DNA from: an uncultured Bdellovibrionales bacterium
GTDB taxonomy: Bacteria; Patescibacteriota; Minisyncoccia; Moranbacterales; UBA1568
Assembly: GCA_964624415.1 (NCBI GenBank)
Contig: CAZUWR010000001.1
Coordinates: forward strand, 3,855-67,854
Length of the DNA: 64,000 nt
Direction of reading: 5' to 3'
This document shows positions 2,484-60,972 of this stretch, one piece after another. Both the position numbers and the translations under genes were made by a program. The notes below the pieces were generated by a model that was given only the letters and a program-made list of their open reading frames with translations, was not told the origin of the DNA and did no database searches. The stretch's first letter is position 1, and every line of letters begins with the position of its first letter.

Positions 2484-3032
2484 GTGAAAAAATGTGTGAG
2501 AGGAATGCTGATACTTTTGGCATCAGTAAGTTTGATCGGATGTTTTCCGCCGTATGATTTTGAACGCTCGGCCATCGAGAGTTCAAGCCGTTTCGATAAC
2601 AGCTTGATAGTAGATGATTTGGAACGCGAAGCGATGGAGAAGCAAGCTGGTGAAGCGATCATTTATCGCAACGGTGAGTTTGCTTATCAAGTCACACCAT
2701 TGCAAATGCGGTATGACAATCGCACGGGCAAAGTGTGTCGCGATTACCAGACCGATGTCATCTTCCGTGGCGATCAAAAATCCGCAAGGAAAACAGCTTG
2801 CAAGTATAGCGGGCAGTGGTATATCGTCAGTATCGATGGAAGATCCACGATACAGTCACGACCACGGTATGCTGTTGTGCAGAATTGGTATATGAATTAC
2901 GGCTCTCCGGGATTCGGTGTACCGGCATGGGCGCAGGGTTTCGGGTATGTCAGTCCGATGTTCGGCCCCATGTTCGGCGGATATCCCCGTACCGGTTTTG
3001 GAGGCGGGGTATATTTTAACGGACGATGGTGA
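2484..3032 (+). CDS. hypothetical lipoprotein with Gly-rich C-terminus
   Basis: GTG start 5 nt after an AAGGAGG SD; signal peptide ending in a LIGC lipobox; the ORF track extends the frame upstream to 2430 without an SD. Confidence 0.5.
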   Translation: MKKCVRGMLILLASVSLIGCFPPYDFERSAIESSSRFDNSLIVDDLEREAMEKQAGEAIIYRNGEFAYQVTPLQMRYDNRTGKVCRDYQTDVIFRGDQKSARKTACKYSGQWYIVSIDGRSTIQSRPRYAVVQNWYMNYGSPGFGVPAWAQGFGYVSPMFGPMFGGYPRTGFGGGVYFNGRW

Positions 3033-7116: not shown

Positions 7117-7145
7117 TTGACAAAATTCGTTTTATGCGCTACACT
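7117..7145 (+). promoter_or_regulatory. sigma-70 promoter of the cold-shock gene
   Basis: TTGACA, 17 nt, TACACT, followed by an approximately 80-nt 5' UTR as is typical for csp genes. Confidence 0.5.
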
Positions 7146-7223
7146 GTAGAGGTGTATAGACACGAAAACAGAGTCGAGTTTTTAGCCGTTAGTATATAAA
7201 TAAGAAGTTTTAAGGAAAATCGT

Positions 7224-7421
7224 ATGCAAGGAACAATTAAGACGCTCACAGACAAGGGATTTGGTTTCATTTCTCGCGAAGGTGAGACAAAGGATCTTTT
7301 CTTCCACTCTAAGGAGTTGGTAGGAGTAACTTTCGAGGAATTGAAGGTTGGTGATGTGGTTACTTTCGAGTTGGTAGACACCCAGAAGGGTCCTGCCGCA
7401 ACAAACGTATCCCTCGCGTAA
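7224..7421 (+). CDS. cspA: cold-shock protein (CspA family)
   Basis: 65 aa; KGFGFI RNP1 motif and DLFFH RNP2-like motif. Confidence 0.9.
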   Translation: MQGTIKTLTDKGFGFISREGETKDLFFHSKELVGVTFEELKVGDVVTFELVDTQKGPAATNVSLA

Positions 7422-55953: not shown

Positions 55954-56277
55954 GTGAAGACCCTGTTAAATTTGAGGTGTATATGTATGGGAGAATTGGT
56001 TTGGAGAAGAATTATTGTTATATCATTGGTGAGTGTGATTATAGGTGGTTTTGCCGAAATCATTCTTATGCCAGTATTTTATAGGATCAGCTACTCTTTT
56101 GGTGGAGTGACCATGTTTTATTTTCCAGTTATTGCGAGTATACTTGGCGCTGTCATCTTATCATGCAGGAAGACTGATCGACACCGCATTCTTACTGGTA
56201 TCGTAACCTTTCTCATTTCGATCGCACTATTTTTTTTGTCTTTTCCTATCCTTTGGTATCTTTATTTTGGACTTTAG
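55954..56277 (+). CDS. hypothetical small membrane protein (3 TM)
   Basis: 107-aa hydrophobic ORF. Confidence 0.35.
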   Translation: MKTLLNLRCICMGELVWRRIIVISLVSVIIGGFAEIILMPVFYRISYSFGGVTMFYFPVIASILGAVILSCRKTDRHRILTGIVTFLISIALFFLSFPILWYLYFGL

Positions 56278-56304: not shown

Positions 56305-57774
56305 ATGAAATACACACCTGTCATCGGCATGGAAGTGCATGTCGAATTGAAGACCAAATCCAAGATGTTTTGCTCGTGCAAGAACGGCTTGGGACTGGAG
56401 AAAACCCCCAATGTCAATATCTGCCCCGTGTGCACCGCGCAGCCGGGGACACTGCCCGTGCCCAATCGCCAGGCGATAGAATTCGTGCAGAAGGCCGGAC
56501 TGGCACTCAATTGTGATATACGCCTCTTGTCGAAATTCGATCGCAAGAACTATTTTTACCCGGATATTCCCAAGGGCTATCAGATTTCCCAGTACGATGA
56601 GCCGCTGTGCGAGAAAGGCGTCATCAGTATCGACGGGAAGGACATCCGCATCACGCGTATCCATATGGAGGAGGATACCGGGAAATCCAATCATCCCAAT
56701 GGCGCAGACTATACACTGGTAGATTTCAATCGTGCCGGTGTGCCGCTGATGGAATTGGTGACCGAGGCAGACTTGTCGAATGGCAAGGAAACTCGCGCTT
56801 TCTGTCAGCGCCTGCAGCAGACGCTGCGCTATATCGGTATCTCGGATGCGGATATGGAGAAAGGGCAGATGCGTTGCGAGGTGAACATATCCCTCCACAA
56901 GGAGGGTGCCGATCGCTTGAGCGGTACCAAAGCGGAGATCAAAAATATCAATTCATTCCGCGCTGTCGAACGGGCTATCGATTTCGAAATCAAGCGCCAG
57001 TCGGAGCTTTTGGATGCGGGAGAAAAAGTGGTGCAAGAAACTCGCGGGTGGGATGAAAACAAGAGCGCGACCGTCTCGCAGCGCAAGAAGGAATCCGCGC
57101 ATGACTATCGCTACTTCCCGGAGCCGGATATCCCGCCGCTTCACTTCACGCAAGACTATGTGGAGGCATTGCGCGCTTCTTTGCCGGAGCTTCCGCAGGC
57201 CAAAGAAGTGCGTTTCCAGGAGGAATACAAGCTCAATGTCGATGACGCGATTATGCTCGCTTCCGATAAGGATTTGGCGGCATATTTTGAAAATGTCATT
57301 ACCGAACTTTCAGCCAAGATCGATGCCAAAGAAGTGAGCGCGACCCTGGAGAAACTTGTCAAGCTCACCGCTAACTATATCATTTCAGAACTGCGCAAGC
57401 ACTTTATCAAGACCGGCGAAACCATCCGCGATATCCGTATCACTCCCGAGAACTTCGCCGAGCTCATCGGTTTCATCGGGGATGGCAAGATCAACTCCAG
57501 TGCCGCCCAGACGGTACTTGAAATTATGTATCAGGGTGAGGATAGCGATCCATCGCATATCATCGAGGAAAAAAACCTGGGACAGATGAGTGATGCCTCT
57601 GCGCTCGAAACCGTCGTAGATGCTGTCTTGGCAGCCAATCAGCAGTCGGTGGAGGACTACAAGAATGGCAAACAAGCGGCCTTCCAGTTCCTTATCGGGC
57701 AGGTGATGAAGGAAACCAAAGGCAAGGCCAATCCGCAGGTGGCGGGCGAATCGCTCAAGAAGCGTCTTCAGTAG
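56305..57774 (+). CDS. gatB: Asp-tRNA(Asn)/Glu-tRNA(Gln) amidotransferase subunit B
   Basis: MKYTPVIGMEVHVEL N-terminus; 489 aa with a conserved GatB/YqeY C-terminal domain. Confidence 0.9.
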   Translation: MKYTPVIGMEVHVELKTKSKMFCSCKNGLGLEKTPNVNICPVCTAQPGTLPVPNRQAIEFVQKAGLALNCDIRLLSKFDRKNYFYPDIPKGYQISQYDEPLCEKGVISIDGKDIRITRIHMEEDTGKSNHPNGADYTLVDFNRAGVPLMELVTEADLSNGKETRAFCQRLQQTLRYIGISDADMEKGQMRCEVNISLHKEGADRLSGTKAEIKNINSFRAVERAIDFEIKRQSELLDAGEKVVQETRGWDENKSATVSQRKKESAHDYRYFPEPDIPPLHFTQDYVEALRASLPELPQAKEVRFQEEYKLNVDDAIMLASDKDLAAYFENVITELSAKIDAKEVSATLEKLVKLTANYIISELRKHFIKTGETIRDIRITPENFAELIGFIGDGKINSSAAQTVLEIMYQGEDSDPSHIIEEKNLGQMSDASALETVVDAVLAANQQSVEDYKNGKQAAFQFLIGQVMKETKGKANPQVAGESLKKRLQ

Positions 57775-57795
57775 ATGTGCGATACAAAGAATACA

Positions 57796-57828
57796 AAAAC
57801 CGCTTTCCGGCTCAGGAGAGCGGTTTTT
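57796..57828 (+). terminator. intrinsic terminator after gatB
   Basis: AAAAACCGCT / AGCGGTTTTT stem around a 14-nt loop. Confidence 0.55.
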
Positions 57829-57851: not shown

Positions 57852-57880
57852 TTGACAAAATGAGGAGAGGGTGCTATAGT
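57852..57880 (+). promoter_or_regulatory. consensus sigma-70 promoter of the small-ORF island
   Basis: TTGACA, 17 nt, TATAGT. Confidence 0.5.
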
Positions 57881-57939
57881 GAAGGAGCAGTACCCAAAAG
57901 ACAATAATTACATAAAAATCAAAAAACAGGAGAAGTGCT

Positions 57940-58038
57940 ATGAGCACGTTTTTAGAATTAGTATTTCTAGGGGTTATTTTTTTCTTTGTATTGAAGGCGC
58001 ATAAAAATAATACGGCGCCCTTAAATACTGATGAGTAG
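57940..58038 (+). CDS. small hydrophobic peptide (32 aa, one TM helix, charged C-terminus)
   Basis: AGGAG SD 6 nt upstream; MSTFLELVFLGVIFFFVLKAHKNNTAPLNTDE; below the ORF-track cutoff. Confidence 0.35.
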   Translation: MSTFLELVFLGVIFFFVLKAHKNNTAPLNTDE

Positions 58039-58047
58039 GAGAACGAA

Positions 58048-58224
58048 ATGACTGTAAAACAAATACTGGCTAAATTTTCAGCAAAAGAAGAGGGTGATAA
58101 TGGGAATTTTGGACTGGAAGATGCTCAAGAGCACAATGTCCAAGAGCATCAAAAAACTCTTCCCGCATTGCTCTTGCGGGATGCTGAAAATTTCAAAGAT
58201 TACCAGTGGCAACACTTTTTTTAA
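58048..58224 (+). CDS. small acidic protein (58 aa)
   Basis: AGGAGA SD; translationally close-coupled to the 32-aa ORF. Confidence 0.35.
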   Translation: MTVKQILAKFSAKEEGDNGNFGLEDAQEHNVQEHQKTLPALLLRDAENFKDYQWQHFF

Positions 58225-58309
58225 ATAGAGCTAGGCGCCGCGTACTGAACTTCAGTCCGGCGCCAAAAATTTTATTTGACAACTTTCTTAGGAGGAGTAT
58301 ACTTGAAAC

Positions 58310-58382
58310 TAATGAAAAGAAAGCTCAACATTTTAGCAGTCTATACGAAGTGATATCATCACCCCTGTGGGTGATTTTTTTT
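58310..58382 (+). ncRNA. candidate small RNA (about 70 nt) defined by a promoter and an intrinsic terminator
   Basis: TTGACA (58276), 17 nt, ATACTT, then about 50 nt, then hairpin ATCACCC-CTGT-GGGTGAT followed by a T9 run; contains only a 13-codon ORF. Confidence 0.3.
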
Positions 58383-58447
58383 GAGCCGATTTTCGCACTT
58401 GTTGTTTAACAACAGAATAATCAAATATTGAGTAAGGAGAATGTGTT

Positions 58448-58741
58448 ATGAATGATTCTAAAATGAGACAACCATCATTAAACTTTCTGGTAGAATCTCC
58501 AGCTTGTGACCTGATGCCCGATGGTGGTTGGTGTGATGTGCCTTTTCTACGGAGTTTACTCCCTTCAGAGCAAAGATGTAATTGCGCAAAGTACGGAAAG
58601 TGCATTATACGGGAATTGCCAAAAATCGATAATCATTCTATGGTTACGATACTTTTTTATAATCAAGCACAGGGAACCCCTGTTCCTGTTGATAAAATTC
58701 GATCAGCAATCAGTTTATATTGTGAAGCTCACAGTGTTTGA
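58448..58741 (+). CDS. small Cys-rich protein (97 aa)
   Basis: AAGGAG SD; 8 Cys including CNCAKYGKC; no family recognised. Confidence 0.4.
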   Translation: MNDSKMRQPSLNFLVESPACDLMPDGGWCDVPFLRSLLPSEQRCNCAKYGKCIIRELPKIDNHSMVTILFYNQAQGTPVPVDKIRSAISLYCEAHSV

Positions 58742-58752
58742 ATGGCACAATA

Positions 58753-58786
58753 AAAGGTGATGATATAAAATTCATCACCTTTTAGC
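58753..58786. terminator. bidirectional terminator between the Cys-rich ORF and miaA
   Basis: AAAGGTGATGA-TATAAAAT-TCATCACCTTT hairpin with flanking T runs. Confidence 0.55.
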
Positions 58787-58789
58787 TTT

Positions 58790-59779
58790 TTAGAAGAAGA
58801 TCTCTGTTTCCGAGGCAGCCTCTATCCAGTGGATATCAGCGCCCTGTTTTTCCCATCGGCGCAGCCAAGTGCGCTGTCTTTTGGCATAGTGGACGATGTC
58901 GAAGAAAAGTTTTTCTTTCATTGTCGGTTCGTCGATGTTTCCCTGCAAGAAGCGAGCTATCCATCGGTATTCAAGACCGAAGGCCTCCAGTTTTTCCCAT
59001 GCCGCGCCATGCTCGTGGAGGCGCCGCACTTCTTCGATCATGCCCTGATCGAAGCGTTCGTCCAGGCGTTTTCGTATATTCGCATCCAGGATGTCTTTTG
59101 GAGGATTGAACGCGATAATGAAATAGTTGCTTTGATTGATATATTGAGGTTTGGGATGTGTCATTCCGATCGTAGCGGAGGAATCCGAGATCCTTCGACT
59201 ACGCTCAGGATGACATATCATGGGGTTGCTCTGCAGTGAAGGGACTTTTCCAAGTGATTGTACGATTTCCAGAGCCCGGATAAGCCGGATGGGATTGTTT
59301 CTATCGATAGTTAGGGCTCTTTCCGGATCGATGGCTTGCAGTTTTGCAAAGAGTTCTTGGATAGAAAGGTGCGAAAGTTCTTTGCGCAGTATGAGATCGG
59401 GCAAGACCTCCGGGAAGGATTGGTTATCGATGAGCGCCTGCGCCCAAAAAAGCGTACCTCCGCAGAGGATGGGGAGTTTGCCGCGGCTTCGGATGTCTCG
59501 GATGATTGCTTGGGCATCACATTTGAAGTCCGTGACATTGTACTCCTCGTGCGGCTCGCGAATATCGAGGAGGTGATGCTGAGCGAGCGACTGCTCTTCG
59601 GTAGTCACCTTACCCGTCCCGATATCCATTCCGCAGTACACCTGTCGGCTGTCGGCTGAAATAATCTCGCCATCGTATTTGAGGGCCAGTGAAATTGCCA
59701 AAGAAGACTTGCCCGAGGCTGTCGGCCCGACGATGGCAAGGGTTTGTGATCTGTCGAATTTTCTTGACGTATGATTCAT
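58790..59779 (-). CDS. miaA: tRNA dimethylallyltransferase
   Basis: P-loop GPTASGKSS and DSRQVY motif; 329 aa; carries an approximately 20-aa insertion (CHPERSRRISDSSATIGMTHP) encoded by the dispersed repeat. Confidence 0.8.
   Translation of the reverse strand: MNHTSRKFDRSQTLAIVGPTASGKSSLAISLALKYDGEIISADSRQVYCGMDIGTGKVTTEEQSLAQHHLLDIREPHEEYNVTDFKCDAQAIIRDIRSRGKLPILCGGTLFWAQALIDNQSFPEVLPDLILRKELSHLSIQELFAKLQAIDPERALTIDRNNPIRLIRALEIVQSLGKVPSLQSNPMICHPERSRRISDSSATIGMTHPKPQYINQSNYFIIAFNPPKDILDANIRKRLDERFDQGMIEEVRRLHEHGAAWEKLEAFGLEYRWIARFLQGNIDEPTMKEKLFFDIVHYAKRQRTWLRRWEKQGADIHWIEAASETEIFF
59189..59215 (+). repeat. dispersed 27-nt repeat, copy 2 (inside the miaA coding sequence, in frame)
   Basis: identical to 41708..41734; on the miaA strand it reads CHPERSRRI. 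Confidence 0.6.
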
Positions 59780-60687: not shown

Positions 60688-60716
60688 TTGACAAATGTTG
60701 CGGCGTATGCTATACT
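60688..60716 (+). promoter_or_regulatory. consensus sigma-70 promoter upstream of leader E2
   Basis: TTGACA, 17 nt, TATACT with an extended TGc. Confidence 0.55.
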
Positions 60717-60794: not shown

Positions 60795-60819
60795 TGAAAC
60801 TCTTATGGAGGATGCAGCT

Positions 60820-60972
60820 ATGACGCTGTCAACAATACTGATATGGGTAGTTTTCCTTTTTATTGTCTATTTATTTTATCTGGCGATGAAGGGAACGAAA
60901 CCAGTAGGGTGTTCTGTGTGGGTACAAATGAATAAATATGCCCCGCACAAAACCGATACCACGTTCGATTAA
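60820..60972 (+). CDS. small membrane protein (50 aa, one TM helix)
   Basis: MTLSTILIWVVFLFIVYLFYLAMKG...; GGAGGA SD; below the ORF-track cutoff. Confidence 0.35.
   Translation: MTLSTILIWVVFLFIVYLFYLAMKGTKPVGCSVWVQMNKYAPHKTDTTFD

Follow-up and report, generated by a model that had tools for sequence, protein, structure and literature searches.

The gap between the convergent genes gatB and miaA, in a 64-kb stretch of contig CAZUWR010000001.1 (the window; 64,000 nucleotides), contains a short conserved leader. It consists of a promoter (P2), a 13-codon micro-open reading frame (uORF1) whose AUG lies immediately behind the −10 hexamer, and an intrinsic terminator (T2), and it is followed by a 97-aa open reading frame (ORF3). 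We propose that this leader is a ribosome-dependent transcription attenuator with a leaderless leader ORF, most likely gating ORF3, a reading that we rate at about an even chance. The gap holds real, fast-evolving small genes in two transcription units, the other of which is read from promoter P1 and carries ORF1, a 32-aa membrane peptide, and ORF2, a 58-aa acidic protein. An initial annotation had called the P2 product a candidate small RNA (sRNA) and had seen in it added support for a likeness, offered as speculative, of ORF1 to type I toxins.

A conserved leader recurs beside miaA

We compared the gap with loci from related genomes, denoted here by L numbers. The closest, contig L082, shares the gene order gatB, ORF1′, ORF2′, RNA, ORF3′, miaA. 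GatB and DnaE of the two genomes are 93–95% identical in amino acids over aligned codons (91% for GatB by tblastn), and in gatB, dnaE and miaA 52–57% of the synonymous positions differ, giving dS values of 0.9–1.1, near saturation. Despite this divergence, promoter hexamers, Shine–Dalgarno (SD) sequences, ORF1, ORF3 and the RNA are kept in relatives. The leader RNA is identical at 76 of 82 nt, and between the window and L082 no other stretch of the gap comes close in conservation to the block from T1, the hairpin that ends the P1 unit, through P2 to the end of T2. The candidate sRNA of the initial annotation is therefore a real element and the most constrained one of the island.

In total, ten leaders were found, in every case on the same strand and 30–110 nt 5′ of an SD-preceded ORF, and this ORF is convergent with miaA wherever the contig reaches that far. 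The leader is 81–92% identical in L086, L098 and L107. L086 and L084 carry the same RNA immediately 5′ of an ORF3 homologue, L083 reads gatB, RNA, ORF3′, miaA with neither ORF1 nor ORF2, and L085 has the RNA and an ORF3 homologue with an ABC transporter upstream and no ORF1. A metagenome pattern scan, in which 30 of the 33 loci returned were unrelated GGGTGAT-hairpin terminators, added the leaders in L092, L098 and L107. A profile search of the loci revealed weak copies in the gatB–miaA gaps of L002 and L007, again without ORF1. A scan of viral contigs for the leader core gave 0 hits, an Rfam scan of 55.5–61.5 kb at E ≤ 1 gave no match to the leader, and an Rfam scan of the whole window at gathering thresholds returned only one tRNA, at 41.6 kb.

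The ORFs behind the ten leaders belong to at least five unrelated families. That of L086 is ~36% identical to ORF3. Those of L098 and L107 are unrelated to ORF3 (hhalign probability 0.4%) and form one Cys-rich family with 46% mutual identity. L092 and L002 have other Cys-rich proteins at this position, and in L007 the protein there exceeds 150 aa. The locus thus turns over its coding content yet keeps its regulatory frame.

The start of the leader is held in a fixed geometry. In all nine loci that include the region, the −35 and −10 hexamers of P2 are conserved with variable spacers, and the AUG lies 8–9 nt after the −10. Because of this fixed distance, the transcript would start at or 1–2 nt before the AUG, making uORF1 leaderless. 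Elsewhere in the 64-kb window, an ATG or GTG falls 6–10 nt after the −10 of just one TTGAC-type promoter, and there the codon is an incidental GTG. This consensus-like promoter (TTGACA-17-TACACT, + strand, GTG 6 nt after the −10), in the region 7118–7230, is followed by a ~70-nt 5′ untranslated region (UTR) and a cold-shock-protein-like gene (MQGTIKTLTDKGFGFISREGETKDLFFH…). A TTG-initiated 16-aa micro-ORF with an AGGAGG SD was also considered for the leader and rejected, as both the TTG and the AGGAGG are unconserved in L098 and L107 and lie inside the promoter.

The micro-ORF is open for 13–20 codons in 10/10 loci, with its stop codon −8 to +12 nt from the terminator stem. The chance of the frame staying open is 0.25–0.54 per lineage, with a product of ~0.002 over six lineages. 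The encoded peptides (MKRKLNILAVYTK, MKTNPAQFLNRGK, MKTQLHTLFLKKTKN, MKYSQRKVEYISNKKVI, MKNFELKKEEFKISDLKNRP and MSPKKKTIQNAFFSKA) start with MK (MS in L007) and are Lys-rich, and are otherwise unconserved outside the close clade. In the window, the uORF1 stop codon occupies 58351–58353 and the T2 5′ arm begins 7 nt downstream.

T2 follows the consensus A/G-UC-A/G-CCC, a 4-nt loop, GGGUGAU and U7–U8, with a GC-rich stem of 7–8 bp in all ten loci and a 3′ arm, GGGUGAU, that is invariant in nine of them. RNAalifold across eight leaders recovered this terminator as the only consensus structure, with 0 compensatory pairs. The AAGUGAU box that overlaps the end of uORF1 repeats the T2 3′ arm and is able to base-pair with the AUCAC in the T2 5′ arm. 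Conservation continues past the terminator: the leader alignment is conserved beyond the U-tract in all lineages, and the read-through RNA therefore appears to matter. Three boxes stand out in this region, the last of them palindromic, with the consensus GUUCUUGAACAA and the window version GUUGUUUAACAAC.

Attenuation and competing explanations

The leader has three of the parts by which attenuators are recognized: a promoter directly upstream, a maintained short ORF, and an intrinsic terminator between that ORF and the gene. We infer where transcription starts, that the micro-ORF is translated, and that the ribosome antiterminates. By default, T2 would form, an RNA of ~70–75 nt would be released, and ORF3 would be off. 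A ribosome following close behind RNA polymerase and reaching the stop codon would cover or unwind the T2 5′ arm, and read-through would then pass the conserved boxes into the SD and ORF3. The weakness of T2, the weakest of the four local hairpins, fits a regulated terminator. As the micro-ORF contains no amino-acid-specific codon run, the readout would be of general translation capacity, of coupling, or of arrest on the peptide. By eye, no −35/−10 pair between T2 and ORF3 is consistent across the loci, and the only hit in the window scores 9/12.

The arrangement resembles several known systems. In the trp, his and leu attenuators and in those of E. coli pyrBI and pyrE, a short translated leader ORF lies 5′ of a Rho-independent terminator; in pyrBI and pyrE, the terminator hairpin is kept from forming by a ribosome that trails RNA polymerase closely and has come to the last codons of the leader ORF. 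We propose that a ribosome at the end of the micro-ORF would likewise block T2. Unlike all of these, the leader ORF here is leaderless, without an SD, and there is no clear set of 1:2, 2:3 and 3:4 helices. Neither regulatory codons nor a nucleotide-sensitive pause were identified, and the downstream gene is an orphan rather than a biosynthetic operon. With the ermC, cat, bmrCD and vmlR attenuators (PMC9226507 for vmlR) the leader shares a short Lys-rich upstream ORF directly before a terminator and the proposed ribosome-dependent read-through. It differs from them in that its downstream genes are small Cys-rich orphans rather than resistance genes, no arrest motif is conserved, and an anti-antiterminator logic is not evident. 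In mycobacteria, leaderless short ORFs (the polycysteine LL-sORFs of Canestrari et al.) act as attenuators in which stalling at Cys codons opens a duplex that sequesters the ribosome-binding site, a form of translational control (bioRxiv 10.1101/834739). Here too, an unannotated short ORF stands at the transcript 5′ end as first cistron, and the position of the ribosome, as proposed, sets downstream expression. Unlike the mycobacterial case, the regulated structure is an intrinsic terminator, there is no run of Cys or other diagnostic codons, and the host belongs to the Candidate Phyla Radiation (CPR).

We would therefore class the leader, with confidence and doubt in roughly equal parts, as a variant of the leader-ORF/terminator attenuators in a phylum whose regulation is essentially uncharted. 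To our knowledge, almost nothing is known of gene regulation in Patescibacteria/CPR, since these bacteria are uncultivated, and we know of no regulatory leader described in them. If the attenuator reading is true, ribosome-coupled attenuation operates in reduced CPR genomes. The clade-conserved module of promoter, leaderless upstream ORF and terminator is defined in sequence and is a concrete element testable in a heterologous host.

Several observations weigh against attenuation. The only candidate antiterminator is a 5-bp GUGAU:AUCAC pairing that is absent from the minimum-free-energy and consensus folds; in L007 this candidate pairing carries one parallel U-to-C change. Within the micro-ORF we found no Cys or other codon run, no arrest motif, and no codon bias that would connect it with the genes it precedes. 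The transcription start is placed by promoter geometry only. Five genomes share the first 24 nt of the micro-ORF without a change, even at synonymous sites, which points to an RNA-level function that a simple translate-to-open-terminator model leaves unexplained. The AAGUGAU box is kept regardless of reading frame, and in L083 and L085 the stop codon lies 10–12 nt before the core stem, at the edge of a terminating ribosome's reach. Finally, the ten loci all belong to a single family-level clade in which synteny is conserved, and the constant succession of leader and ORF does not amount to ten fully independent observations. A link to MiaA through i6A37-dependent UNN codons in the leader was also considered and dropped, as no UNN enrichment was visible (by eye, with no count).

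Some of these same features suit a different product. P2 may yield a free-standing sRNA of ~75 nt, acting in trans or in a dual role with the 13-aa peptide, whose functional part would be the single-stranded, A-rich 5′ half; ORF3 would then be expressed by leaky read-through. Such an RNA would have its own consensus promoter and U8 terminator, an unstructured 5′ half and a terminator hairpin at its 3′ end, and its first 24 nt, invariant at all codon positions in five genomes, look seed-like rather than coding-like. The gene families behind the leader are interchangeable, and the frame-independent box, the 5-bp antiterminator and the wide stop-to-stem gap in two lineages also keep this explanation alive. 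Against it, pairing with local mRNAs and within the 64-kb window does not rise above shuffles (longest 11 nt; shuffles 10–13 nt), including, in both the window and L082, the predicted duplexes with the ORF1–ORF2 mRNA and with the ORF3 initiation region. The 5′ seed is unconserved in L083, L085, L092, L002 and L007, although these loci retain the terminator, an open frame and the placement of the AUG. Conservation extends past the terminator, the RNA is closely followed by a same-strand ORF in 10/10 loci, and Rfam holds no match. We consider a free sRNA possible but doubtful. A ligand-sensing riboswitch, responding for example to a metal or a thiol, would account for the order of promoter, leader, terminator and gene and for downstream proteins that are Cys-rich and may bind metal. 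The terminator aside, however, there is no conserved secondary structure and no covarying pair; the 45 nt before the terminator, an A-rich stretch, are free to diverge between lineages and show no folding beyond that of shuffles (z −0.4). With no conserved structure beyond the terminator and no Rfam family at E ≤ 1, a riboswitch is thus highly improbable.

The type I toxin analogy rested on real features. Type I toxin–antitoxin loci such as tisB/istR-1, zor/orz and hok/sok resemble this island in that a very small gene for a hydrophobic peptide with a single transmembrane (TM) helix stands beside a short, strongly promoted RNA. ORF1, a 32-aa peptide with one TM helix and a charged tail, is conserved in L082, and the RNA, predicted to be strongly expressed, lies 270 nt downstream. 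In contrast to such loci, antisense or trans complementarity is missing: energies of the duplex between the RNA and the ORF1 mRNA equal those of shuffles in both the window and L082 (0.32–0.84 of shuffles at least as good), and the RNA is co-directional with ORF1 without overlapping it. The RNA occurs without ORF1 in L083, L085, L002, L007, L098 and L107, and the last two have another, single ORF in the P1 unit. ORF1 is predicted to share a bicistronic mRNA with ORF2, the ORF1 5′ UTR is unstructured with the SD exposed, and PADLOC, Pfam and NCBIfam gave no matches. Thus, with no complementarity, an RNA that is present without ORF1, and an open ORF1 SD, the analogy fails its defining tests, and an antitoxin role for the RNA is barely credible. 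Its distribution argues that the RNA belongs with the downstream gene and not with ORF1. A candidate sRNA beside a small hydrophobic ORF, then, need not be a toxin–antitoxin pair, a lesson for annotation.

The attenuator may also extend past T2. A UUG at the end of the T2 U-tract opens a putative second micro-ORF (MSRFSHLLFNNRIIKY in the window) in eight of the ten leaders (the window, L082, L084, L085, L086, L098, L107 and L007). In six loci it begins M-S-x-F-S-[YHF], with variation that looks partly synonymous. GGGUGAU, 5 nt 5′ of the UUG, is a candidate SD; GGGUGAU and GUGAU are complementary to the canonical 16S 3′ tail, and the window itself carries no rRNA. The second micro-ORF of the window stops 2 nt before the ORF3 SD. 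The UUG micro-ORF and the complementarity of GGGUGAU together suggest a translational relay, in which 70S ribosomes translating the leaderless first micro-ORF right behind RNA polymerase would melt the terminator and GGGUGAU would serve as SD for the UUG micro-ORF, delivering ribosomes to the hypervariable Cys4 gene. We put this forward as a tentative and rather unlikely elaboration, specific to the CPR. If true, it would provide Moraniibacteriota with a fixed expression socket beside miaA for rapidly diversifying small metal-binding proteins. It would then also found a new family of regulatory RNAs, and Patescibacteria would gain their first described attenuator.

Small genes of the two transcription units

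The three small ORFs reported by the initial annotation, each with an SD, were all recovered at the coordinates given there, as were its two near-consensus promoters. Stable hairpins with U-runs, four in all, lie after gatB, ORF2, the short RNA and ORF3 (Table 1). An AGGAG-type SD lies 6–8 nt 5′ of each ORF. Promoters scoring 11/12 occur about once per 6 kb in the rest of the window versus twice within the 1-kb gap.

Table 1. Features of the gatB–miaA gap and its flanking genes (window coordinates).
Feature	Position	Strand	Details
gatB	56305-57774	+	ORF positions
gatB terminator hairpin, A-run / U-run both sides	57795-57828	+	−21.8 kcal/mol, z −6.1; kept in L082
Promoter P1, TTGACA-17-TATAGT, extended TG	57852-57880	+	11/12
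ORF1, 32-aa single-TM peptide, basic then acidic tail (MSTFLELVFLGVIFFFVLKAHKNNTAPLNTDE)	57940-58038	+	ORF + SD
ORF2, 58-aa acidic protein, 9 nt after ORF1	58048-58224	+	ORF + SD
T1, hairpin ending the P1 operon	58234-58264	+	−20.7 kcal/mol, z −3.95
Promoter P2, TTGACA-16-TATACT	58276-58303	+	11/12
uORF1, predicted leaderless micro-ORF, 13 codons + UGA (MKRKLNILAVYTK)	58312-58353	+	AUG 8 nt after −10
AAGUGAU box	58348-58354	+	contains uORF1 stop codon; conserved in 9/10 leaders
T2, intrinsic terminator, AUCACCC-CUGU-GGGUGAU + U8	58358-58382	+	7 bp, 4 GC; −10 kcal/mol
Putative second micro-ORF from the UUG ending the T2 U-tract (MSRFSHLLFNNRIIKY)	58381-58431	+	
Post-terminator boxes UUGAGC, AUUUUC and palindromic GUUGUUUAACAAC	58381-58386, 58389-58394, 58401-58413	+	leader alignment + L084, L002, L007
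ORF3, 97 aa, 6 Cys	58448-58741	+	SD AAGGAG at 58434-58439
T3, terminator hairpin common to convergent ORF3 and miaA	58751-58784	.	−18.4 kcal/mol, z −5.7; 83% identical in L082
miaA	58790-59779	-	ORF positions; convergent with gatB

P1 would drive an operon of ORF1 and ORF2 that ends at T1. The hydrophobic stretch of ORF1 is FLELVFLGVIFFFVL, and the description of ORF1 as a small membrane peptide has held: its 36-aa L082 homologue shares 43% identity with it across 30 aa (pairwise E 1e-6) and keeps the TM helix, the basic stretch and the acidic tail in that order. The ratio of nonsynonymous to synonymous substitution (dN/dS) is ~0.26 over 32 codons between the two. ORF1 was found only in the window and L082. 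At the position of ORF2, L082 has a 67-aa ORF with an SD; BLASTP detects no similarity between the two, and alignment is limited to a patch near the C-terminus, F-[KQ]-D-[YF]-Q-x-x-H. Comparison among relatives, which the initial annotation had suggested, thus upholds ORF1 and ORF3 as homologous genes in L082, and ORF2 is conserved in position only.

An exact look-up of ORF1 and ORF2 in a collection of ~15 billion proteins returned no record. The two have therefore never been called as genes, and the claim that strongly signalled small genes had been overlooked here was justified. ORF3 is present in the same collection, called as a gene and without a name.

Across the loci, the P1 unit is optional and fast-evolving. 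It holds two ORFs in the window and L082, a single 63–67-aa ORF with an amphipathic N-terminus in L098 and L107, a 99-aa ORF in L002, a Cys-rich 78-aa ORF in L087, and none in L083, L085 and L007. The P1 hexamers are kept in L082, L098 and L087, with different spacers. T1 is 85% identical in L082, and a hairpin also occupies this place in L098 and L107, built on another inner stem. An A/T-rich AAAAATTTTATT follows T1, directly 5′ of the P2 −35.

ORF3 carries six Cys rather than the eight first counted. Its sole homologue in a word index led to contig L082, where it is 56–61% identical with a dN/dS of 0.21, and on that ratio ORF3 is clearly coding. A full hidden Markov model search found seven family members among 1.84 billion representatives, and four Cys are invariant across the family (C20, C29, C46 and C52). 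The AlphaFold2 model is mostly helical (predicted local distance difference test score, pLDDT, 78.6) and has no match among solved folds or families. Searches of ORF1–3 against Pfam, NCBIfam and PADLOC gave no matches, and Pfam returned nothing meaningful for the relatives' ORFs up- and downstream of the leader. ORF3 is probably a small cytoplasmic Cys4 protein, predicted to bind metal. The locus thus documents three unannotated or orphan small-protein genes, encoding a membrane peptide, an acidic protein and a Cys4 family without a fold match.

A variable slot and other features of the window

The closest GatB matches among species representatives are metagenome-assembled genomes of Candidatus Moraniibacteriota, at 65–70% identity, which places the window genome in that group of the CPR/Patescibacteria. 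The gap measures 1015 bp, with a GC content of 0.36–0.40 versus 0.50–0.55 in the flanking genes. In more distant Moraniibacteriota gatB and miaA are still convergent, and the content between them is unrelated (L003–L009) or absent (L005). L004 has a 179-aa transposase-like ORF, L005 only 64 bp, L006 ORFs of 92 and 321 aa, L008 a 116-aa ORF that is endonuclease-like by eye together with a 192-aa ORF, and L009 a 310-aa ORF that resembles aspartate carbamoyltransferase, again by eye.

The gap is thus a variable slot across Moraniibacteriota. The arrangement of promoter, leader and small ORF beside miaA is ancestral to the clade that reaches GatB identities of 66–70% (L002 and L007). The locus is therefore an old, fast-evolving, hypervariable small-gene slot rather than a recent insertion, and its conserved core is a previously undescribed leader. 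The initial proposal of lineage-specific accessory DNA inserted among housekeeping genes agrees with the varying gap content; the ancestral layout speaks against it.

Neighbouring genes have features of their own. A 65-nt imperfect palindrome at 59155–59219, inside miaA (− strand), coincides with an in-frame insertion of ~27 aa in MiaA (…MICHPERSRRISDSSATIGMTHPKPQYIN…), which L082 lacks. At this site MiaA of L098 carries another insert, and inserts of similar appearance lie in the DnaE C-termini of the window and of L098. They resemble palindromic elements inserted in frame, of the type of miniature inverted-repeat transposable elements or Rickettsia palindromic elements (MITE/RPE).

A third 11/12 promoter (60688–60716, + strand) precedes a 55-aa one-TM ORF at 60805–60972. 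A clear homologue of 56 aa lies in L098 (oriented 2851–3021), between miaA and dnaE, and the ORF looks like a conserved small membrane protein, probably unannotated. Upstream of gatB, a 107-aa multi-TM ORF (55954–56277, + strand) lies in another low-GC pocket (0.37), between DHFR and gatB; L082 has MazG and thymidylate kinase there instead.

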